Shown in pieces: positions 11,573-40,201 of a DNA stretch of 42,525 bases. Made by a program: the position numbers and the translations under genes. Source of the stretch: a virus. Below the pieces are notes generated by a model. It saw only the letters and a program-made list of their open reading frames with translations. It was not told where the DNA came from and searched no databases. The stretch lies in the IMG/VR virus record IMGVR_UViG_3300045988_020566. One strand, written 5' to 3'. Positions within the stretch are counted from its first letter, which is position 1, and the number at the start of each line of letters is the position of its first letter.

Positions 11573-12215
11573 GGGAGAATTGAGCCGCAGAGGTGTAAAA
11601 GCCTTTGCGGTTCTCTCATTTATGGCGTTTACCTCCTGCGCCATAGCGGGGACGGCGCTTTTTCATCTTTTCACGCCGCTCCCGCACCATGCCGCACGCG
11701 CGATGCAGCCCACAATCAGGGCCGAGAGGTCGCACCTCTCATGCGGCACAGGGCCCCGCGCACCTCTCAACGATGTGTCCCAGCGGGGACATTTAGGGGC
11801 GAATGTTCCAAGGCTGGCGAGGCGGTCTCCAAAACCGCTTGGGTGGGTTCGATTCCCAACCGTCCCTGCCAACTCTAAACGGAGTCACCAACGGAGTATA
11901 AACAAGTGGGGTAACCGTGGGAACCGGAGATATACGGCATAGGTGCCCCGTAAGGGGAGACCACAGCGAGTGACGGGGACTTTCCCTGAAGCGCTAAAGC
12001 AGGGCAGGACTGCAATGCCGTACCAAAAGAGGAGAGCCGCTGCCTTTGGCAATGGGCAAAGCCCGCCTGAAAGTGCGGCAATAATGGTTCGCGTGAGCAT
12101 GGGGTGAGCGATTAAATCAGGCCAAATCGGTGACAACACCGGGCGAGCCTGAGCTAGTAAGTGTATGCCCTTCGGGGCGGGTAAATTCTGCTATGTAAGG
12201 CCAAGGGGCGGGGGC
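11573..12215 (+). ncRNA. large structured non-coding RNA candidate (ROOL/GOLLD-class or novel); boundaries approximate
   Basis: 727-bp gap before terS with no credible ORF. Stacked hairpins were folded by hand (11573-11617, 11621-11645, 11646-11685, 11690-11748, 11775-11792, 11942-11962 GUAA loop, 12001-12046, 12048-12067, 12117-12152, 12167-12178 UUCG loop). Confidence 0.5.
11795..11871 (+). tRNA. tRNA-Trp(CCA)-like element, non-canonical (possibly a module of the large RNA)
   Basis: 77 nt. A 7-bp acceptor (AGGGGCG/CGTCCCT), G discriminator and encoded CCA. A 5-bp anticodon stem with loop CUCCAAA, and a T-loop GGGTTCGATTCCC. However, the D-arm cannot be folded and the T-stem has a mismatch or an extra C. 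Confidence 0.4.
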
Positions 12216-32937: not shown

Positions 32938-33159
32938 ATGGAACTGATTCGCAAGAGACTGGCAAACCTGATGAGCGTCAAGAGCATCGTGACGCTGGTG
33001 CTGACGGGAGTATTTGCATACATGGCCGTCACGGGCAACATCTCGCAGGACTTTATGACCATTTACGCGGTCATCATCGCGTTCTATTTCGGCACGCAGA
33101 GCCAAAAGACGCAGGACGTGATCGACAGCAAGGGTGACGACAATGTATCACAGCCGTGA
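32938..33159 (+). CDS. putative holin (2 TM, FYFGTQ motif)
   Basis: 73 aa. SVKSIVTLVLTGVFAYMAV...YAVIIAFYFGTQSQK resembles Clostridia phage holins. Immediately upstream of the endolysin. Confidence 0.65.
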   Translation: MELIRKRLANLMSVKSIVTLVLTGVFAYMAVTGNISQDFMTIYAVIIAFYFGTQSQKTQDVIDSKGDDNVSQP

Positions 33160-33751
33160 CATTGCCGACCTGCGGGCGGACGTGCGGGCAAACTGCGTCA
33201 TCTTCCTCGATCTCTGCAAGGAGGCGGGGCTTCCGGTGCTCGTGACGGAGACAGTCAGGGATGACGAGTACCAGCGCTATCTTGCCGCGAACGGCTACGC
33301 GGCAAAGACCGCGACGCGCCCGACGTTCCACAGCGTCAAGGCGGGACTGGCGTTCGACATCTGCAAAAACGTCAAGGGGCATGAGTACGACGATGCGTCG
33401 TTCTTTGCCCGCTGCGGGCAGATTGGCAAGCAGGTCGGCTTTTCGTGGGGCGGCGACTGGAAAAAATTCCCCGACAAGCCGCATTTCCAGTGGGACAACC
33501 ATAGGCGATACACAGGGAGCATGATTTTGGCGGGCAAGTATCCGCTGGAAATGGAGGAGTACATGGATCAGGCAACGTTTAACAAGATGATGGACAGCTA
33601 TTTGGCGCAGCTTGGCACCAAGCCCGTCTCTTCGTGGGCGGCGAAAGACTGGGCGGCGGCAAAAGCTGCGGGCATCACGGACGGCAGCGCGCCGCAGAGA
33701 TTTATCACGCGGCAAGAAGTCGTGACGATGATCCAGAGAGCGACAAAATAA
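33134..33751 (+). CDS. endolysin: M15 (VanY / L-Ala-D-Glu peptidase-type) domain + SLH-like repeat
   Basis: Zinc ligand pattern FHSVKAGLAFD ... DKPHFQW. The C-terminus SWAAKDWAAAKAAGITDGS...ITRQEVVTMIQRA looks like one SLH repeat. The start may be ATG 33143. Confidence 0.85.
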   Translation: MTTMYHSRDIADLRADVRANCVIFLDLCKEAGLPVLVTETVRDDEYQRYLAANGYAAKTATRPTFHSVKAGLAFDICKNVKGHEYDDASFFARCGQIGKQVGFSWGGDWKKFPDKPHFQWDNHRRYTGSMILAGKYPLEMEEYMDQATFNKMMDSYLAQLGTKPVSSWAAKDWAAAKAAGITDGSAPQRFITRQEVVTMIQRATK

Positions 33752-33828: not shown

Positions 33829-34074
33829 ATGAACAGTCAGCATAAGCGTATCCGCGCGCAACTATCCTCTATGGCTCCAAAGCGAGCTGTAGCGTATGTT
33901 TTATCCTTCAAGCTGCCGCAGGACGAGGCGGCGTGCATCATTGAGTGCGACGTTCGGCGGAAAAGCTGCGTACAGGTCGCGGACATGTTGCACGTCAGCG
34001 TTGACGGATTGGCAAAAATCAGGCGGAGAGCGTATACAAAAATTGCAGATGGGCAAGAGAAAAGCACCGACTAA
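33829..34074 (+). CDS. sigma-70 region-4-like HTH protein
   Basis: 81 aa. VQVADMLHVSVDGLAKIRRRAYTKI resembles a region 4.2 HTH. The start is uncertain (in-frame GTG 33754 and TTG 33763 are also possible). Confidence 0.45.
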   Translation: MNSQHKRIRAQLSSMAPKRAVAYVLSFKLPQDEAACIIECDVRRKSCVQVADMLHVSVDGLAKIRRRAYTKIADGQEKSTD

Positions 34075-34205: not shown

Positions 34206-34661
34206 TCAACCTTGCATTTCCGGGTGCTCGCGCCCAAAGGCTACGCCGTCATCATAAGCAGCTTTGAGCAGCGCCATCGTTTCGCCGATCTGCTGTGCAC
34301 TGTACATATCCCACCACTCCGCTGGGATACGTTCCACCAGCAAGTGCATGGTCGTTGGGTACCCGCGCCATCCGCTGTATTCGCACGCCTGCTGGACCTT
34401 CAACTCTCTGCGGCGCTGATCGGCAGTTAGTCCCTCGTAGGCCTCGCGGGTGAAAATATCCTTTGCCTTGAGCTTTTTGACCGCGGGCGTGATATCGTCC
34501 ATGCGGCAGGAGAAGATATCCGCCATCTTTCGCAAGGTGTCCGCGCTCGGATTCACGGTGCCGCGCTCCCAGCGGGAAATGTGGTTCTGAGCGACGCCCA
34601 GCGCAGCGGCGAGTTGCGCCTGCGTCATGCCAAGCTCTTCGCGATATTCCTTGATCGTCAT
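34206..34661 (-). CDS. XRE-family HTH regulator with unknown C-terminal domain
   Basis: The ATG at 34661 follows AGGAGGA. HTH EYREELGMTQAQLAAALGVAQNHISRWERG, then a 90-aa C-terminal domain with no motif I recognise. Confidence 0.75.
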   Translation of the reverse strand: MTIKEYREELGMTQAQLAAALGVAQNHISRWERGTVNPSADTLRKMADIFSCRMDDITPAVKKLKAKDIFTREAYEGLTADQRRRELKVQQACEYSGWRGYPTTMHLLVERIPAEWWDMYSAQQIGETMALLKAAYDDGVAFGREHPEMQG

Positions 34662-34674
34662 GCCGAATCCTCCT

Positions 34675-34986
34675 TTACCACTGAGCCTTTTTAGGCTCCC
34701 AGTTGTAGTCACCGTCGTTCCAATGAGTCACAAGTTCCTCTGCCATCTTAATGGCTTCGTAGTAAGTCTGCGCGGCGTACACAACACCGCCGCTGGTGGT
34801 AACATCGCAACCACCGTTTACGATCTCACCCAGGTGCCCGTCTTCAAAAACTTCGTGCAGGACGCTGATGGATGCGGTGGCGGAATACTCTCCGTCGTTC
34901 GTCGTGAACGTCTTTTCTGCAATCGTTTCAGAACCGGTTGGGATCTCGCCGTTTGCCATGGCCATAATCATCTGGATATCGTTCAT
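34675..34986 (-). CDS. hypothetical protein (faint HicB/UPF0150-like pattern)
   Basis: AGGAGG 8 nt before ATG 34986. 103 aa. EDGHLGEIVNGGCDVTTSGG...YYEAIKMAEELVTHW vaguely recalls the HicB N-terminal domain. Lies 13 nt upstream of the XRE gene. Confidence 0.55.
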   Translation of the reverse strand: MNDIQMIMAMANGEIPTGSETIAEKTFTTNDGEYSATASISVLHEVFEDGHLGEIVNGGCDVTTSGGVVYAAQTYYEAIKMAEELVTHWNDGDYNWEPKKAQW

Positions 34987-35017
34987 TTCATTTACCTCCT
35001 GGGCTGCGCCCCTCTTG

Positions 35018-35054
35018 TTGATATAAATATACCATATATGGTATAATATGTCAA
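35018..35054. promoter_or_regulatory. face-to-face divergent promoters sharing an 18-bp palindromic operator
   Basis: Plus strand: TTGATA(35018-23), 18-nt spacer, TGgTATAAT(35042-47). Minus strand: TTGACA(35049-54), 17-nt spacer, TATATT(35026-31). Palindrome TATACCATATATGGTATA at 35028-35045. An extra half-site ATACCATAT at 35135-35143. Confidence 0.55.
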
Positions 35055-35106
35055 GCGCAAAATCGAAGTTTTTGAAAATATTTTCGCGGCAGAATACGGG
35101 CATTTT

Positions 35107-35133
35107 ACGGGCGCTTTTGAGCGCCCGTTTTTT
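35107..35133 (+). terminator. leader terminator/attenuator upstream of the accessory cassette
   Basis: acgggcgc/gcgcccgt 8-bp stem followed by T6, between the promoter and the first SD. An upstream duplicate, tacgggc (35095-35101), could form a competing helix. Confidence 0.6.
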
Positions 35134-35166
35134 GATACCATATAGATAATAAAGGAGGTGCGCGAA

Positions 35167-35289
35167 ATGTACGAACGGCTTTTAGCTTGTGGGTTTACCG
35201 AGCAAATGGCGATGGATATTTTGGCACTGTTTCCTGACCCTGACGAGCTGCGCACTTACGTCTATTTCGCGGAGCTATTTCATGTATAG
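35167..35289 (+). CDS. 40-aa hypothetical peptide
   Basis: AAGGAGG SD. Hand-translated MYERLLACGFTEQMAMDILALFPDPDELRTYVYFAELFHV. Overlaps the next start. Confidence 0.4.
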   Translation: MYERLLACGFTEQMAMDILALFPDPDELRTYVYFAELFHV

Positions 35290-35665
35290 CTATTTCAATC
35301 CAAATCCCACTGGGCGTAATGTGTCCGATTGCACCGTGCGTGCGATCTGCAAGGCGACCGGGAAGGACTGGGGCGAGGTCTATTTGTCGCTGTGCATACG
35401 AGGATACTTAGACGGCGATCTCCCCAATGCAAACGCCTGTTGGGGCGCATATCTGCGATCACTTGGGTATCGGCGCTATATCATGCCGGATACTTGCCCC
35501 GATTGCTACACGGTCGGTAGGTTTGCCGACGAGCACCCGCGCGGGACGTATATTCTCGCGCTCTCAGGACATGTGGTCTGCGTGCAAGATGGTGTGATTT
35601 ACGATAGTTGGAACAGCGAGAACGAGATCCCGCTTTATTACTGGGCAAAAGAAACGGAGGAATGA
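35282..35665 (+). CDS. hypothetical protein, possible papain-like Cys peptidase
   Basis: 127 aa. N-terminal SDCTVRAICKATG (candidate nucleophile), later GHVVCVQDGVIYDSW (candidate His/Asp). Fold assignment is inference only. Confidence 0.5.
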   Translation: MYSYFNPNPTGRNVSDCTVRAICKATGKDWGEVYLSLCIRGYLDGDLPNANACWGAYLRSLGYRRYIMPDTCPDCYTVGRFADEHPRGTYILALSGHVVCVQDGVIYDSWNSENEIPLYYWAKETEE

Positions 35666-35667
35666 AC

Positions 35668-36093
35668 ATGGCATATCCCTATTTCAATCCCTATTATCCG
35701 CAGCCAATACCGGACAACCTCATGCAGATGCGGCAGATGCAGCAGCCACAGATGCAGCCCATGCAGCAGCCAGTGCAACAGAACCCCATCGCGCAGGGCG
35801 GCGTGCAGTGGGTCAACGGAGAGCAGGAGGCGAGGGGCTATCTCATCGCGCCCAACTCTGCTGTGGCGCTGTGGGATAGCTCCGCACCGACGGTATACCT
35901 CAAGCAGTCCGACGCGAGCGGCAAGCCGACGCTCAAGATTTATGACCTCGTAGAACGCGCAGAAACGCCCCGTACAGCGCCGCAGGAGAAGGGCGTGGAA
36001 TTTGTCACCCGAAAAGAGTTTGACGCGCTGGCGGCACTTGTGGGCGAGCTGAAGGGCAAGAAGAAGCGCAAGGAGGACGATGACGATGAATAA
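35668..36093 (+). CDS. Pro/Gln-rich N-terminus + globular domain protein
   Basis: SD acggagg. Start MAYPYFNPYYPQPIPDNLMQMRQMQQPQMQPMQQPVQQNP, then GGVQWVNGEQEARGYLIAPNSAVALWD..., then a KKKRKEDDDDE tail. Confidence 0.6.
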   Translation: MAYPYFNPYYPQPIPDNLMQMRQMQQPQMQPMQQPVQQNPIAQGGVQWVNGEQEARGYLIAPNSAVALWDSSAPTVYLKQSDASGKPTLKIYDLVERAETPRTAPQEKGVEFVTRKEFDALAALVGELKGKKKRKEDDDDE

Positions 36094-36286
36094 TCCTTTT
36101 TTCGGTGCGCTCGGCGGCGGGAACGGCTTCATGCAGATGCTGCAACAGTTCCAGCAGTTCACGGCAAATTTTCAGGGGGATCCAAAAGCAGAGGTCGAAA
36201 AGCTTTTGCAATCTGGAGCTATGAGCCAACAGGAGTTAAACCAACTTCAATCTATGGCAAAGCAGTTTGAACACTTATTCCACTAA
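36080..36286 (+). CDS. small Gln-rich protein
   Basis: 68-aa ORF MTMNNPFFGALGGGNGFMQMLQQFQQF...QQELNQLQSMAKQF. Overlaps the previous gene. Confidence 0.5.
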   Translation: MTMNNPFFGALGGGNGFMQMLQQFQQFTANFQGDPKAEVEKLLQSGAMSQQELNQLQSMAKQFEHLFH

Positions 36287-36338
36287 TCTTATCGTGGCCA
36301 CGATTTGATGAATAAAAATCTTTCAAAGGAGTGATACT

Positions 36339-37043
36339 ATGTCTCTTTCCGACGGTGCTCCCATGATGACTATGCCGGTCGCGCCCGCGAACAGCTACGG
36401 CGGTGGCATGGGTATGTGGGGCGAAAACTGGATCTGGATTATCGTTCTTTTCCTCTTTGGTTGGGGCCGCAACGGATTTGGCAACGGCAACGGCAACGGC
36501 GGCGTCGTAGACGGCTATGTGCTGACCTCTGACTTTGCCAATGTCGAGCGCAAGATCGACAGTGTAAATCAGGGCCTTTGCGACGGATTTTACCAGCAGG
36601 CGCAGCTTGTCAACGGCACCAACATGGCGATGGCAAACGGCTTTGCACAGGCTGAACTTTCCCGCAGCAACCAGCAGGCGGCGCTCATGCAGCAGCTCAA
36701 CGCCATGCAGATGCAGGCCGCAAATTGCTGCTGCGAGAATCGCGCGGCTATCGCGCAGGTGCGCTACGACATGGCGGCGCAGGCGTGTGACACGCGCAAC
36801 ACCGTGCAGAACGCGACCCGCGACATCATCGACAACGCCAACAGCAACAGCCGCGCGATCCTCGACTTCCTGACGCAGAGCAAGCTCTCTGACCTCCAGG
36901 CTGAGAACCAGGGCTTGAAGCTGGCGGCAAGTCAGGCGGCGCAGAACAGCTATCTGGTCTCGCAGCTGCGTCCCTCTCCCATTCCGGCCTACACGGTGCA
37001 GAACCCCTATTGCTGCAACCAGTTTGCCTGTTGCGGCTGCTGA
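36339..37043 (+). CDS. membrane-anchored Gln/Asn/Ala-rich helical protein with poly-Cys C-terminus
   Basis: SD aaaggag. TM helix WIWIIVLFLFGW, GNGNGNG linker, long Q/N/A-rich helices with CCCENR, ending PYCCNQFACCGC. I counted 10 Cys. Confidence 0.7.
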   Translation: MSLSDGAPMMTMPVAPANSYGGGMGMWGENWIWIIVLFLFGWGRNGFGNGNGNGGVVDGYVLTSDFANVERKIDSVNQGLCDGFYQQAQLVNGTNMAMANGFAQAELSRSNQQAALMQQLNAMQMQAANCCCENRAAIAQVRYDMAAQACDTRNTVQNATRDIIDNANSNSRAILDFLTQSKLSDLQAENQGLKLAASQAAQNSYLVSQLRPSPIPAYTVQNPYCCNQFACCGC

Positions 37044-37073
37044 CAACTGCATAGCATAGCTTTTTGTTGACGA

Positions 37074-37093
37074 TTTTGTTGACGTCAACAAAA
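37074..37093. promoter_or_regulatory. 20-bp perfect palindrome TTTTGTTGACGTCAACAAAA (with direct repeat TTTTGTTGACG at 37062)
   Basis: Verified as its own reverse complement. Lies between two sub-blocks of the accessory cassette. Confidence 0.4.
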
Positions 37094-37123
37094 TGGTCGG
37101 CCCCGTGCCGATACTACGACAAC

Positions 37124-37156
37124 GCGGCGGGGCAATCGCTCCGCCGCTGTATTTTA
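37124..37156 (+). terminator. terminator-like hairpin inside the accessory cassette
   Basis: gcggcgg/ccgccgc stem, extendable to 10 bp, followed by tgtatttt. A second hairpin gggtcg/cgaccc lies at 37160-37175. Confidence 0.45.
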
Positions 37157-37195
37157 ACCGGGTCGAAATCGACCCCTTTAGAAAGGACTGAACTC

Positions 37196-37411
37196 ATGAA
37201 AACGATTGACGATCTGAAACAAGAATTTGTAGACCATCTTGCTGCTATGGATAAGTCCGAAATGAGCATGGTCGAACTCGCAAACTATGCCGATCTGCTG
37301 TATAAGGCGGACGCTCTCTTTAAGCCAAGCTATACAGATGTACTTGCATCCGGCTTCATTTCCCCTTTTGCGGCAACTACTTGGAAAAAGGAGGAGAAGA
37401 AAAATGGCTGA
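37196..37411 (+). CDS. 71-aa hypothetical protein
   Basis: ATG inside ORF 37064-37411. Helical sequence MKTIDDLKQEFVDHLAAMDKSEMSMVELANYADLLYK. Overlaps the next gene. Confidence 0.5.
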   Translation: MKTIDDLKQEFVDHLAAMDKSEMSMVELANYADLLYKADALFKPSYTDVLASGFISPFAATTWKKEEKKNG

Positions 37412-37826
37412 ATACGTTACCGCTGGCATTGTTACTGTTCCTGCTGGACAGAATGTGCCGATGGTCTCCACGGCGGCTTGCGGCAAGCCCTGCATCGTCC
37501 ACCGCGAGGGTAGCGGACTTGTCACCCTGCGTGGACTGACGCAGCAGTGCAAGGCACGCTTTAAGGTGGGTTTTGGCGCGAACATCGCCGTTCCCACGGG
37601 GGGAACGGTAGGCTCGATCACCACGGCGCTTGCCGTCAACGGCGAAGAGCTCAATAGCGCCACGGCGACCGTTACACCCGCTGCGGTGGAGAACTATTTT
37701 AACGTCTACGTCAGCGCCATCGTCGAAGTGCCGCGCGGCTGCTGCGTGACGGTGGCGGCGAAAAACACAAGCGCGCAGGCGGTCAGCTTTTCCAACAGCA
37801 ATCTGACCATCGACCGCGTGAGCTGA
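37404..37826 (+). CDS. all-beta protein with BclA-C-terminal / C1q-TNF-like jelly-roll sequence pattern
   Basis: Strong SD aaaggaggag. 140 aa. Alternating beta pattern VTVPAGQNVPM...CIVHREGSGLVTLRG...FKVGFGANIAVPTGGTVGSITTALAVNGEEL...VTVAAKNTSAQAVSFSNSNLTIDRV. Confidence 0.6.
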   Translation: MAEYVTAGIVTVPAGQNVPMVSTAACGKPCIVHREGSGLVTLRGLTQQCKARFKVGFGANIAVPTGGTVGSITTALAVNGEELNSATATVTPAAVENYFNVYVSAIVEVPRGCCVTVAAKNTSAQAVSFSNSNLTIDRVS

Positions 37827-37840
37827 AAGGAGAATGAACA

Positions 37841-38194
37841 ATGGGTATGAAATCTATGTATGATCTGCGCGACATGCTCTGCAAGGAGCTGGAAGAGATC
37901 ACTCGCAAGGGTGAGCTTGGCGCAGGTGACCTTGACATCGTGCATAAGCTGACTGATACCATCAAGAACATCGACAAAATCGAAGCGATGGAGGAAGACG
38001 GCTATTCCAGCCGCCGCGACGAGTACGATATGCGCGGCAGAGGCAGACGCGGCACGCACTACGTGCGCGGCCACTATTCCCGTGATGGCAGCATCGACAA
38101 CATGAAACGCCAGTTGCAGGAAATGCTGGACAACGCCGACGATGACAGCATCCGCAGAGCTATTCAGCGCTGCATGGACACGATCGAGGGTTAA
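37841..38194 (+). CDS. hypothetical helical protein with Arg/Gly/Tyr-rich linker
   Basis: SD aaaggag. 117 aa with central DGYSSRRDEYDMRGRGRRGTHYVRGHYSRDGS. Confidence 0.6.
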   Translation: MGMKSMYDLRDMLCKELEEITRKGELGAGDLDIVHKLTDTIKNIDKIEAMEEDGYSSRRDEYDMRGRGRRGTHYVRGHYSRDGSIDNMKRQLQEMLDNADDDSIRRAIQRCMDTIEG

Positions 38195-38209
38195 AGGGGG
38201 TGCACCCCT

Positions 38210-38530
38210 ATGGTCGACGAGAATGAGGTCAATCGCTGGATAGCCCGCCTTGAAACGGAAGAATCAAGCTGGACAAACTATGAGCGCCTTGCCGTGCTGT
38301 ATGCCATCCGTGACCAGCAAAGCGGCAGCAGAGAGAGGGCTTTGCCAATGGCATACTCTGCAGCACCCGCGCCGGTCAACGTCGAAACATACGGCGACAG
38401 CGATTTTCTGCGGGCGGTGGCAGATGTTCCGCCGGACAAGGCGTGGGAGATCATGGACGAGCTGATGGACAGCTTGAAAATTGTGAACGAGCGCGTATAC
38501 AACAGCGTCATGCGCAAGCTCGAAAAATAA
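38210..38530 (+). CDS. hypothetical protein
   Basis: SD aaggggg. 106 aa, the last gene before attP. Confidence 0.6.
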   Translation: MVDENEVNRWIARLETEESSWTNYERLAVLYAIRDQQSGSRERALPMAYSAAPAPVNVETYGDSDFLRAVADVPPDKAWEIMDELMDSLKIVNERVYNSVMRKLEK

Positions 38531-38552
38531 ATTGCAGATGGGATTACAGATG
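38531..38552 (+). repeat. two ATTRCAGATG arm-type repeats (left of attP core)
   Basis: attgcagatg (38531-40) and attacagatg (38543-52). The same motif and orientation as the three copies at 38749-38782. Confidence 0.55.
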
Positions 38553-38597
38553 CGCGTCAAAAAACCGTGTAATATCAATGCTTTTGCGGTTTCGGTT

Positions 38598-38625
38598 GCG
38601 GGTTCGACTCCCGCCGCCTCCACCA
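38598..38625 (+). other. attP core candidate: 3' part of a tRNA gene (T-arm + acceptor 3' strand + ACCA)
   Basis: gcggg-ttcgact-cccgc T-arm, then cgcctcc-a-cca. No matching 5' acceptor strand (ggaggcg) lies upstream, so this is a fragment and not a gene. Confidence 0.6.
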
Positions 38626-38634
38626 TTAAAAAAA

Positions 38635-38664
38635 CCTCGCAGTCTCAACGGCTGCGGGGTTTTT
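38635..38664 (+). terminator. rho-independent terminator following the tRNA-like fragment
   Basis: cctcgcag/ctgcgggg 8-bp stem (one G-U pair) followed by ttttt. Confidence 0.6.
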
Positions 38665-38748: not shown

Positions 38749-38782
38749 TTGCAGATGAATTGCAGATGAAATTACAGATGAA
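38749..38782 (+). repeat. three tandem TTRCAGATGAA arm-type repeats (right of attP core)
   Basis: ttgcagatgaa (38749-59), ttgcagatgaa (38760-70) and attacagatgaa (38771-82). The last copy overlaps the integrase stop codon. Confidence 0.6.
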
Positions 38783-39785
38783 ATTCGGATTCAAAAAAGC
38801 CGTCAACGGCATCTGCCACTGCTACGGCTTTATCATTCATCGTGTGCTGATATACGTTTTTTAGCATGTTGTTTGTAGAGTGCCCCATGCGCTCCATTGC
38901 ATATTTGTCTGGGACATTGAGCCTGAGCATGACCGACGCATTTACATGCCGGAGGTCGTGAAAGCGGAACGGCGAAACTCCACAGCGGGCACACGCGCGT
39001 TGCAGATGCTTATACAGGACATTTCTGGTTGCATGGACAATATACTCATCTGTGCGCGGTGTTGCTTCAATCAGCCCCATAATATACGGCGGCACTTTCA
39101 GCTTTCTGTTGCCGCTGTAAGTTTTTGGCTGCTTGAGCTGCGGACCGTCCTCACCGTCTACCATTGCTTGCCTGATCGTTAATATATCGCCGTCAAGACA
39201 ATCCCATGTCAGACCTCTGATCTCCGATGTACGGAGGCCGAGCCAGACAGCCAGCAGGAAAGGCAATTCAAAATCTGTGCCTTTGCAGTCTTCGTGCAGA
39301 ATTCTGATCTCGTCCATGGTAGGGATTTTAATTTTAGGCGCTTCCTTCTGCGGGAGTGATATGCGGAACACCTTATCGGGACATTCCTCCGACATTGCCG
39401 CCGTGAATAGGCCGTAAGCGTTGCGGACATACTTAGGGGACTTTTCCCGCGCCATCTTATTCACGGCACGCTGCACGCGATCCTGCGTCAACGCGGAGCA
39501 CTTAACGCTTATCAGCTCGGGGAAAACCACCTTGCGTAGTTTTCTGTACCCGTTCACGGTGGAGGGGGAAAGTATCGCGTCCTTGCTATCGATATATCGG
39601 TCAATAGCGTCGCCGACCGTTCGCTCAGACGCACGAGCGGCAGACTTTGCGCCGGACTTCAATGCGGCGGCTTCATTCTCCGCTTGCCGCTTGGTAGGAG
39701 CTGTGACGGACACACGCTTTCCGTCTACCATGACGCTAACGTTCCAGTTCCCCGATGGCAGTAGTTTTGCTTTTGGTATTTTCAT
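38772..39785 (-). CDS. int: tyrosine integrase
   Basis: C-terminal catalytic signature FHDLRHVNASVML...MGHSTNNMLKNVYQH. Start MKIPKAKLLPSGNW at ATG 39785, overlapping the upstream stop by 1 nt. Confidence 0.9.
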   Translation of the reverse strand: MKIPKAKLLPSGNWNVSVMVDGKRVSVTAPTKRQAENEAAALKSGAKSAARASERTVGDAIDRYIDSKDAILSPSTVNGYRKLRKVVFPELISVKCSALTQDRVQRAVNKMAREKSPKYVRNAYGLFTAAMSEECPDKVFRISLPQKEAPKIKIPTMDEIRILHEDCKGTDFELPFLLAVWLGLRTSEIRGLTWDCLDGDILTIRQAMVDGEDGPQLKQPKTYSGNRKLKVPPYIMGLIEATPRTDEYIVHATRNVLYKHLQRACARCGVSPFRFHDLRHVNASVMLRLNVPDKYAMERMGHSTNNMLKNVYQHTMNDKAVAVADAVDGFFESEFHL

Positions 39786-40201
39786 CAAATCCCCCTCCAA
39801 AATCCGTAATCTATGCAGTGGAAATCAATGTACACGCACCACGCGGCCAGAAAGACGATAATGACAAACATTATAGCAATCACGCCGTTGCGGATACGCA
39901 CGCCGCGCCGCATGATCTCGATGGTATCGGCCTTTGCGTCAACGTGTCGTTCCAACTCGTCGTTACGCGCCTGTAAGGTTTCCTCGGCTGGCGTCAAGTG
40001 TTCGGAAATGCCGAACACTTCATCAAGAGAGATGCCAAGCACTTTGCAAATCGCAGCGACTGTGTAAACTGATGGGGACTTAGATGCGCGGGAGAAAAAA
40101 TTTTTTACTGTTTGCAACGGTAATCCTGCTTTGTCGGCAATATCTTGATGCGTTAGTCTTAACAAGTCTTTTTGCTCCTGACATCGTTTCTGAATGTTCA
40201 C
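39785..40201 (-). CDS. membrane-anchored XRE-family HTH regulator (candidate prophage repressor)
   Basis: GTG start. HTH LTHQDIADKAGLPLQTVKNFFSR, a helical linker, and a C-terminal TM helix GVIAIMFVIIVFLAAWCVYI. Confidence 0.8.
   Translation of the reverse strand: MNIQKRCQEQKDLLRLTHQDIADKAGLPLQTVKNFFSRASKSPSVYTVAAICKVLGISLDEVFGISEHLTPAEETLQARNDELERHVDAKADTIEIMRRGVRIRNGVIAIMFVIIVFLAAWCVYIDFHCIDYGFWRGI

Follow-up and report, generated by a model that had tools for sequence, protein, structure and literature searches.

Nine forward genes at positions 35167–38530 of the viral genome IMGVR_UViG_3300045988_020566, together with a small gene upstream of them that encodes a helix-turn-helix (HTH) protein, are one copy of an ancient, self-contained and mobile phage gene module. 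It is carried by phages of Clostridia from gut and rumen, in which it closes the late/lysis block at its distal end and adjoins attP where an attP is present. The combination of its parts matches no known phage or bacterial system, and we regard the module as a kind of system that is not yet described. The viral record, hereafter the window, is a stretch of 42,525 nucleotides (nt) with a siphophage-like genome (~42.5 kb, ~53% G+C); its closest relative in GenBank is the human-gut virome contig MT835513, with 92% identity across the structural genes. We labeled the nine forward genes P1 and P3–P10 and the upstream gene, encoding an HTH protein of 81 amino acids (aa), P0. A preliminary description, made from the sequence alone, had drawn an island of eleven open reading frames (ORFs), nine rightward and two leftward, between the endolysin gene and attP. 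All eleven ORFs exist at the coordinates claimed, and the position proved to be right, as the endolysin matches Peptidase_M15_4 and the integrase beyond attP matches Phage_integrase. The parts of the forward unit are the following.

35167–35289, + strand: P1, helical peptide of 40 aa; ATG at 35167 behind the ribosome-binding site AAAGGAGG, stop codon overlapping the start of P3
35282–35665, + strand: P3, putative minimal papain-like thiol enzyme of 127 aa; phrog_3754 and predicted structure
35668–36093, + strand: P4, 141 aa, Q/P-rich N-terminus; phrog_21718
36080–36286, + strand: P5, Gln-rich helical protein of 68 aa; phrog_22984; 14-nt overlap with P4
36339–37043, + strand: P6, 234 aa, hydrophobic segment and Cys clusters; phrog_16490
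37124–37147, + strand: internal terminator-like hairpin between P6 and P7/P8, from the hairpin scan
37196–37411, + strand: P7, helical protein of 71 aa; no family match
37404–37826, + strand: P8, predicted TNF/C1q-like jelly-roll protein of 140 aa; phrog_20016, structural model and Foldseek
37841–38194, + strand: P9, 117 aa; weak match to phrog_28802
38210–38530, + strand: P10, helical protein of 106 aa; conserved motif YGDSDFL...IMDELM

Scanning of the GTDB species-representative genomes with an alignment of P8 yielded 78 loci. All module families were mapped on the collected loci by iterated hidden Markov models (HMMs), and presence was counted in the 62 sources with sufficient flanking sequence. 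The order P3-P4-P5-P6-P8-P9(-P10), on one strand and with overlapping or closely spaced genes, recurs throughout the loci. Among the well-flanked loci, P6 and P9 were each present in 61, P4 in 56, P5 in 55, P3 in 51 and P10 in 26, and the full six-gene set was found in 50 of the 62. Recurrence of the genes as a block was the very point on which the preliminary description had declared itself open to refutation, and the block was upheld strongly. Its nine-gene rightward unit stood in part: for seven forward genes out of nine, the families keep a common order at dozens of independent loci, while P1 and P7 are sporadic members of the module and not core. P7 is present in eight loci only, and P1-like small ORFs with the motif 'RLxxxGF/Y(T/S)...A' occur in about 12 loci, including that of the Butyrivibrio virus Ceridwen. 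That the island might be private to the phage of the window is ruled out by the synteny.

The 78 loci come mostly from metagenome-assembled genomes (MAGs) of Oscillospiraceae, Lachnospiraceae and other Clostridia, with P8 identities of 34–81%. The hosts are mostly monoderm Oscillospiraceae and Lachnospiraceae, and a few loci were binned to the diderm Selenomonadaceae. A tblastn search against phage genomes retrieved P8 in 15 records, among them the cultured virus Ceridwen, and the same gene order was seen in Ceridwen, in Dulem viruses 33 and 39, and in lemur and human gut phages; P10 is also present in Ceridwen. For Ceridwen, only lytic growth has been seen and no evidence of excisionase genes has been reported; no integrase is annotated within the stretch that we examined, and the paper on this virus gives no function for the module genes. 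The families are large, with at least 7883 clusters for P8 and at least 7998 for P6 (lower bounds, at 90% identity), 1157 for P3 and 2328 for P4 (at 50% identity), all of them unnamed. The distal tail proteins of the window have homologs beside no other copy of the module, and its lysin beside two only. We conclude from this that the module is exchanged independently of the genes that surround it.

Protein families of the module

Nothing significant was retrieved for P3–P10 in Pfam, NCBIfam, PADLOC, or sequence and profile searches of the PDB, and PADLOC-DB 2.0 gave no hit except a chance-level match of P9 to Csm2 (E 0.02). In PHROGs, P3, P4, P5, P6 and P8 fall into five families of 'unknown function' with E values from 5.8e-22 to 2.8e-56, and P9 matches weakly. 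The database names of the module proteins all read 'hypothetical protein', and a search of the literature for the PHROG identifiers of the module and for TNF-like prophage proteins returned nothing relevant. The early impression that no known structural, lysis, replication or defense family is represented was thus borne out by Pfam, PHROGs, PADLOC and NCBIfam. Internal paralogy among P4–P10 was considered and rejected, the best pair in an all-against-all hhalign comparison being P7/P9 with a probability of 26%. A signal peptide, or a lipobox within the first 35 residues, was found in no module protein, and P6 alone among them has a membrane-like segment. The preliminary description had suggested a secreted or surface-associated complex; this suggestion found no support, and with no signal peptide in any of the proteins, a secreted complex is rejected.

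The structural model of P8 has a TNF/C1q-like fold, a ten-strand jelly-roll beta sandwich. This AlphaFold2 (AF2) model is all-beta, with a predicted local distance difference test score (pLDDT) of 79 and a predicted template modeling score (pTM) of 0.71. Foldseek matched it in the PDB to the C-terminal domain of BclA (BclA-CTD), F-BclA, ExsFA/BxpB, EDA-A1 and 4-1BBL, with E ~2e-6, template modeling (TM) scores of 0.67–0.78 and a probability of 1.00, and a phage spike knob is also among the structural neighbors in the PDB. Matches in BFVD are stand-alone proteins of 130–140 aa from uncultured sipho-, podo- and myoviruses (TM 0.8–0.9), some of which are annotated as 'BclA protein'. Model and matches agree with the BclA-C-terminal/C1q-like pattern that had initially been guessed for this protein. 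P8 gave no Pfam or NCBIfam hit at E values up to 0.1 and no meaningful PDB hit by sequence. Its invariant positions comprise the HREGSG..TLRG loop, C49 and the vicinal pair C113-C114, and mean column identity is 76% in an alignment made up mostly of close homologs.

What P8 has in common with BclA-CTD, ExsFA (BxpB) and F-BclA from the Bacillus cereus group exosporium is the jelly-roll fold (the TM range given above being TMq). The likeness to ExsFA/BxpB goes further in that P8, too, is a stand-alone domain in the size range of about 140–160 aa, cytoplasmic and without a signal peptide. ExsFA trimers dock peptides of partner proteins, which may serve as a working analogy for P8 and P6. There are differences, too. 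Identity to the exosporium proteins is 9–15%, and P8 has no Pfam match and no collagen-like repeats; indeed, an array of collagen-like GXX repeats is not visible in any module protein, and P8 consists of the jelly roll alone. Furthermore, the module is phage-encoded and its partner genes are unrelated to ExsY, CotY and BclA. The hosts include non-sporulating bacteria, among them Butyrivibrio, which speaks against the speculation about spores in the preliminary description.

In its AF2 model (pLDDT 92.9), P3 arranges Cys, His and Asp in the manner of a minimal papain-like enzyme, its enzymatic activity being putative. Across 40 homologs, D16-C17, H97 and D108 do not vary, and C72-P-x-C75 is close to invariant. 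Cys17 starts a helix (residues 17–26) in the model, and His97 and Asp108 are located on adjacent strands (98–102 and 105–108). The invariant residues speak for the papain-like nature that the preliminary description had proposed, and a close structural match was not found: the Foldseek matches are weak, with Josephin-2 at E 0.07, a probability of 0.80 and a TM score of 0.40, and NlpC/P60 and Tae4 at E ~1–2. P3 has no Pfam hit, its PDB profile search produced one chance-level match, and a glutaredoxin-like hit to the CPxC motif (E 0.6) lies below a useful threshold. Its weak structural neighbors are found among the papain-like enzymes with the same Cys-His-Asp layout, such as NlpC/P60 amidases, Josephin-type deubiquitinases and the transglutaminase core. 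In contrast to these, P3 is far smaller with its 127 aa, matches no HMM, does not exceed a TM score of 0.40 and has the additional, near-invariant CPxC.

Members of the P3 family are also encoded without the rest of the module, in Bacillus Tsamsa-like phages, where some are annotated as 'putative peptidase', in Geobacillus phage GBK2 and in Lak megaphages. Examples among the collected loci are Bacillus phage Izhevsk (L088, 9583–9978) and GBK2 (L089, 26471–26860). In large Bacillus siphophages, P3 lies near a gene for a Ser/Thr kinase and a gene for an Ocr-like anti-restriction protein.

Module loci that lack P3 encode, directly after P9, an HExxH-containing protein of about 105 aa, which has sub-threshold matches to phrog_87 and to the metallopeptidases of the SprT-like, M78 and DUF6782 families. 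This HExxH zincin marks a divergent branch of the module (L003:8241–8558, L047:8044–8364, L052:8012–8401, L053:8118–8450 and six more). Either P3 or the HExxH protein is present in 58 of the 62 well-flanked loci, and the remaining four include remnants that are truncated or disrupted by insertion sequences. That one peptidase has been exchanged for a non-homologous one speaks for proteolysis, or a related reaction, as an integral part of what the module does.

P6 starts with a conserved MPVxP motif and has a Gly-flanked hydrophobic segment at about residues 30–43. A Q/N/A-rich repetitive helical region with an invariant CCC (130–132) is followed by a P-x-P-x-PAY motif and a C-terminal Cys cluster, which ends in GCGC in the family. 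The protein of the window contains ten cysteines and 20% Q+N and terminates with CCNQFACCGC. On the Kyte-Doolittle scale, its hydrophobic segment reaches 1.23 over 19 residues. The family median is 1.51 over 19 residues, where 30 of 77 members reach 1.6 or more, and 1.96 over 15 residues. The charge bias is weak: a mean of 1.1 acidic residues precedes the hydrophobic core, and charges are few on its far side. P6 is a likely membrane anchor, judged by these sequence features. Of the membrane anchoring proposed in the preliminary description, the hydrophobic segment itself is confirmed; it is short, and the anchor stands as a likely reading of it. A resemblance of P6 residues 43–122 to the fusion peptide and helix of influenza HA2 (E ~0.09) is compositional and not significant, and we made no use of it.

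The remaining conserved proteins are of unusual composition, as had been noted before for P4, P5 and P6. In P4, the Q/P-rich N-terminus has Q or P at 21 of the first 45 residues; a beta-rich core, conserved over about 55 residues, comes next, and the protein ends with a helix and then a charged tail. P4 has no match in Pfam or the PDB, and a weak hit to DUF4912 (E 0.023) lies below a useful threshold. P5 contains 25% Q+N. In P9, a low-complexity linker that is rich in R, G, Y and S and varies in length connects an N-terminal helical domain with a C-terminal helix.

Flanking genes, transcription signals and the leftward arm

On the left, the forward genes are preceded by a lysis cassette, P0, two reverse-strand genes and a control region, and on the right they are followed by attP and the integrase gene.

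32938–33159, + strand (rightward reading): ORF of 73 aa without a Pfam match, called holin from its position and two hydrophobic stretches
33134–33751, + strand: endolysin; Peptidase_M15_4, 6e-11
33829–34074, + strand: P0, 81-aa stand-alone HTH protein of the sigma-70 region 4/LuxR (GerE) type; Sigma70_r4_2, 7e-4
34206–34661, − strand: XRE-family HTH protein of 151 aa; Pfam HTH_3, 2e-19
34675–34986, − strand: protein of 103 aa, first gene of the leftward arm; no family match
35018–35054, no strand: divergent sigma-70-like promoters with a shared, operator-like palindrome
35107–35136 (stem-loop 35107–35128), + strand: terminator-like hairpin, GC-rich stem of 9 base pairs (bp) and T run, between the + promoter and P1
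38532–38790, no strand: attP with arm-type repeats, tRNA 3'-end fragment and a hairpin at 38630–38664
38772–39800, − strand: tyrosine integrase; Phage_integrase, 3e-13

P0 is located directly after the endolysin gene, outside the island as it was first drawn. One family of proteins of 68–82 aa is encoded immediately upstream of P3 in 39 of 63 loci, and P0 of the window is a member of it. Its own score falls below the Pfam thresholds; among 29 members of the family, 15 matched Sigma70_r4_2, 12 Sigma70_r4 and seven GerE, and PHROGs labels the proteins 'sigma factor'. In the family, P0 is followed by a terminator-like hairpin (defined here as a GC-rich stem with a T run) and then by the module. 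Like stand-alone sigma-70 region 4/LuxR-type regulators such as GerE, P0 consists of the HTH alone (~70–82 aa). It differs from them in lying upstream of a terminator-like hairpin with no recognizable promoter adjoining, and its regulatory role is putative; it may activate the module or serve it as an antiterminator.

The largest upstream ORF is on the same strand as the module in 52 of the 57 loci examined, and when such ORFs were scanned against Pfam (n = 52), the matches were mostly to the cell-wall hydrolase families Amidase_2, CHAP, ELLD, Amidase_3, GH25, M23 and M15_4. On the downstream side, the largest ORF of about 20 among 56 loci is the gene of a tyrosine or serine recombinase; in the others it is an early phage gene or a host gene. 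Hairpins are enriched at three places. Upstream of P3, 34 of 61 loci have one within 320 nt; the gap between P6 and P8 (median 117 nt) contains one in 41 of 80 loci, and downstream of the last gene, 47 of 67 loci have one within 250 nt, compared with 30 of 261 random windows of 270 nt drawn from the same loci. The internal terminator that had been reported after P6 is the hairpin at 37124–37147. In several loci the upstream hairpin ends about 35 nt before the first start codon; a distance below 40 nt is frequent, and a private promoter does not fit into it. A sigma-70-like promoter was detected upstream in only three of 61 loci, and where it is present, as in the window, it lies 5' of the terminator-like hairpin. 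Either the hairpins are leaky terminators or RNA stabilizers that grade one long transcript, or read-through requires a factor, for which P0 is the obvious candidate.

The control region of the window extends over about 180 bp. It contains two promoters back to back, each with 11 of 12 matches (+ strand, 35018–35047; − strand, 35054–35026), and a perfect 18-bp palindrome, TATACCATA|TATGGTATA, at 35028–35045 that overlaps both of them. A copy of the palindrome half-site is found 106 bp downstream at 35135–35144, and the window contains the 16-bp palindrome core a single time, where chance would give 0.08 occurrences. Judged by its sequence, the palindrome looks like an operator for an HTH dimer. 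The control region recognized in the preliminary description is therefore real, and the strong hairpin at 35107–35128 has to be added to it. The gap between the + promoter and this hairpin is about 60 nt, and an RNA of about 75 nt is expected unless it is read through (35055–35136). Rfam gave no match in the window at gathering thresholds and only chance-level hits for the leader, and the fold of the leader RNA is not better than that of shuffled sequences (z = −0.5). The hairpin is conserved in position among relatives, with compensatory changes in the stem. In L014, L018 and L023, the order is P0, a hairpin with compensatory stem changes and P1, and leftward genes are absent. Since alignment with relatives retains the hairpin without the leftward genes, the leader hairpin belongs to the module.

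The leftward arm does not. Its XRE protein alone gives real matches in PADLOC, all to generic HTH models, and the XRE gene has no ortholog at the same position in other module loci. The 103-aa protein matched nothing in Pfam, PHROGs and NCBIfam, gave one chance-level PADLOC hit (E 0.021) and has a homolog in none of the 87 collected loci covered by this check. MT835513 has different leftward genes at the same spot, including another HTH protein, and a promoter with another palindrome. Because it is absent from the other copies, differs in MT835513 and is missing in L014, L018 and L023, the XRE/103-aa arm represents a separate insertion: it is a replaceable cassette placed between P0 and the leader hairpin and not a constituent of the module. 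With its palindromic operator, the arm may add a local layer of control in this phage. Of the two leftward regulators proposed earlier, the XRE protein is retained, while nothing marks the 103-aa protein as a regulator, and the leftward genes have to be removed from the unit. The term 'self-regulated' is likewise unproven, as the hairpin separates the + promoter from the genes and the XRE regulator is not conserved with the module. Regulation of the conserved module by the XRE arm as a general rule was rejected, both of its genes being absent from all other module copies.

At attP, a tRNA 3'-end fragment spans about 38586–38626. The tRNA 3' end, GGGTTCGACTCCCGCCGCCTCCACCA, terminates at 38626, where the fragment ends with CCGCCTCCACCA, and the arm repeats TTGCAGATG/TTACAGATG flank the core at 38532–38553 and 38751–38790. 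ARAGORN finds no complete tRNA at attP, from which we conclude that the window is the phage form and not an integrated prophage; presumably, the phage integrates into a tRNA gene. Adjoining the integrase gene, an HTH_3 protein (39785–40201, − strand) has a strongly hydrophobic C-terminal stretch, VIAIMFVIIVFLAAWCVYIDF, and may be a membrane-tethered XRE-type regulator. The phage genome also encodes a tRNA-Trp (anticodon CCA; 11795–11871, + strand).

Several loci show insertions or unusual surroundings. Genes for homing endonucleases (NUMOD4/HNH_3, NUMOD1) and for a further family lie between module genes in about eight loci (L002:6410–6961, L021:4017–4685, L077:4863–5858, L001:8449–9312, L023:3060–3899, L040:4962–5816, L044:5164–5841 and L051:3731–4381). 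The recurrent further family has 216–287 aa, a 'GRLTV...CxCxCG' motif and no Pfam match, and is possibly another family of homing endonucleases. In one phage lineage (L004:1–6092, L005:1–6104 and L007:1–6122), a gene for a giant polyvalent protein (3266–3757 aa, LPD23) takes the place of a lysis cassette less than 100 nt upstream of the module, and a ToxN_toxin gene is located near the integrase gene of L004. A decayed module resides in a bacterial chromosome on a 120-kb contig of an Oscillospiraceae MAG (L006/L011); this remnant consists of a truncated P6 next to an ISL3 transposase fragment, P8 and P9, and no phage structural or lysis genes were recognized within the 16-kb stretch examined.

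Possible roles of the module

We tentatively favor a complex that a peptidase matures, that the cytoplasmic membrane anchors and that is produced when the lysis genes are expressed or later. The module proteins would arise in the cytoplasm, together with the lysis gene products or shortly afterwards, by read-through of leaky terminators or with the aid of P0, and their products would assemble as one complex on the cytoplasmic membrane. P6 would provide the anchor and a helical stalk, a P8 trimer would be the globular partner, comparable to ExsFA/BclA-type trimers that dock peptides, and the low-complexity proteins P4, P5 and P9 would be adaptors or matrix. The peptidase would mature one component, and the conserved cysteines might hold a metal or cross-link the assembly. 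Such a complex could act on the envelope at the end of infection, in lysis, in egress, or in shielding the progeny or the cell against further infection. Homing endonuclease genes usually sit beside conserved lytic-cycle genes. A role in the lytic cycle, tentative as it is, is preferred to lysogenic conversion because the link of the module to the lysis block is at least as tight as that to attP, because the module is kept in Ceridwen, which is known from lytic growth only, because its depth and synteny are those of a core function and it attracts homing endonucleases, and because there is often no room for a private promoter.

Several points weigh against this proposal. The flanking hairpins resemble those of a moron, and the upstream ones, should they be true terminators, would cut the module off from late transcription, as in a classical moron. 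The cassette of repressor, operator and promoter upstream of the module in the window and in MT835513 suggests that the module is expressed independently of the late operon. That the proteins interact physically is proposed from their synteny, the hydrophobic segment of P6 is short and its charge bias too weak to fix a topology, and the solitary occurrences of P3 hint at a function of P3 of its own. Finally, we know of no precedent in phages of monoderm hosts for an end-of-infection role that involves seven or more proteins.

The same hairpins and cassette would suit a moron for lysogenic conversion or superinfection exclusion with its own regulation and expression from the prophage, whose membrane complex alters the envelope of the lysogen or blocks DNA entry by other phages. 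This possibility, which comes close to the view of the preliminary description, we take seriously and yet consider rather doubtful. The module shares the position at the prophage end, the bordering hairpins on both sides and the accessory character with phage morons such as lambda bor and lom or the streptococcal prophage toxin genes. The classical place by attP is reflected in the recombinases that form the largest downstream ORF in about a third of the loci (~20/56), an HTH repressor gene, a cognate palindrome and a strong promoter lie just upstream in the window and MT835513, and P6 is likely to associate with the membrane. Morons, however, usually comprise one or two genes and are sporadic and lineage-specific, whereas the module has seven to nine syntenic genes in thousands of diverged copies and occurs also in Ceridwen with its purely lytic record. 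In addition, the regulator cassettes are not conserved, the proximity of the upstream hairpin to the first start codon often leaves no private promoter space, fixed synteny and family depth resemble those of a core function, no module protein has an export signal, and PADLOC provided only a chance-level match. It is unlikely that the module encodes virion proteins outside the structural block, with P8 as trimeric knob or decoration, P6 as an ejected, membrane-inserting protein or stalk, P4, P5 and P9 in assembly and the peptidase as a maturation protease. TNF/C1q-like domains are typical of fiber and spike knobs, and the matches include the phi812 central spike, fibritin and collagen-like fiber proteins; parts assembled in the cytoplasm are expected to lack signal peptides, the genes are co-oriented with the late genes, and a peptidase is dedicated to the module. 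On the other hand, the module is paired with unrelated tail and lysis genes and is positioned after the lysis cassette, behind hairpins, and P8 is strongly conserved, albeit in an alignment of mostly close homologs, whereas receptor-binding heads normally vary.

An envelope-fusion device of the spanin type, with P6 as the i-spanin in the form of an anchored coiled coil with functional cysteines, is very improbable. P6 resembles the spanins Rz/Rz1 in its N-terminal anchor, its long helical region and its conserved cysteines, it is encoded beside holin and endolysin, a few loci were binned to the diderm Selenomonadaceae, and its weak compositional resemblance to HA2 would point the same way if it were significant, which it is not. 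There is, however, no sequence similarity to Rz/Rz1, the hosts are mostly monoderm, the lack of a lipobox in all module proteins leaves P6 without an outer-membrane lipoprotein partner, and six further conserved genes have no counterpart in spanins. A chance neighborhood of unrelated small accessory or anti-defense genes is largely refuted by the synteny and has next to no probability in our view. All families are annotated as 'unknown function', P3 stands alone beside the Ocr-like gene in Bacillus Tsamsa-like phages, and P1, P7 and P10 are variable; but order, strand and spacing are fixed across loci whose P8 proteins share no more than 34–93% identity, start and stop codons overlap, and the set is complete in the great majority of well-flanked loci (50/62).

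A coat- or exosporium-like, self-assembling and cross-linked layer in the cytoplasm of the infected cell, deposited on the membrane, on progeny particles or on the forespore, is distinctly unlikely, more so than a virion role, and is set out here for the analogies that it offers. P0 is of the GerE type, the Gln-rich P4, P5 and P6 could be substrates of P3 if it works like the transglutaminase Tgl or the protease YabG, and the likeness of P8 to an ExsFA/BclA-like TNF trimer and of P6 and P9 to a Cys-, Tyr- and Gly-rich matrix is suggestive. If true, this would be a phage-directed structure that has not been described before.

Whichever role applies, be it that of the membrane-anchored, peptidase-matured complex that we favor or another, few conserved gene blocks are as common as this module in phages of the Clostridia that dominate the human gut, Oscillospiraceae and Lachnospiraceae. 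As a fixed set of seven to nine genes of defined anatomy, carried by the cultured virus Ceridwen and by many prophages, it is a tractable target. Any correct reading would give a function to tens of thousands of database proteins, and the answer may reveal how phages of monoderm anaerobes take a step in their life cycle for which model phages offer no counterpart.

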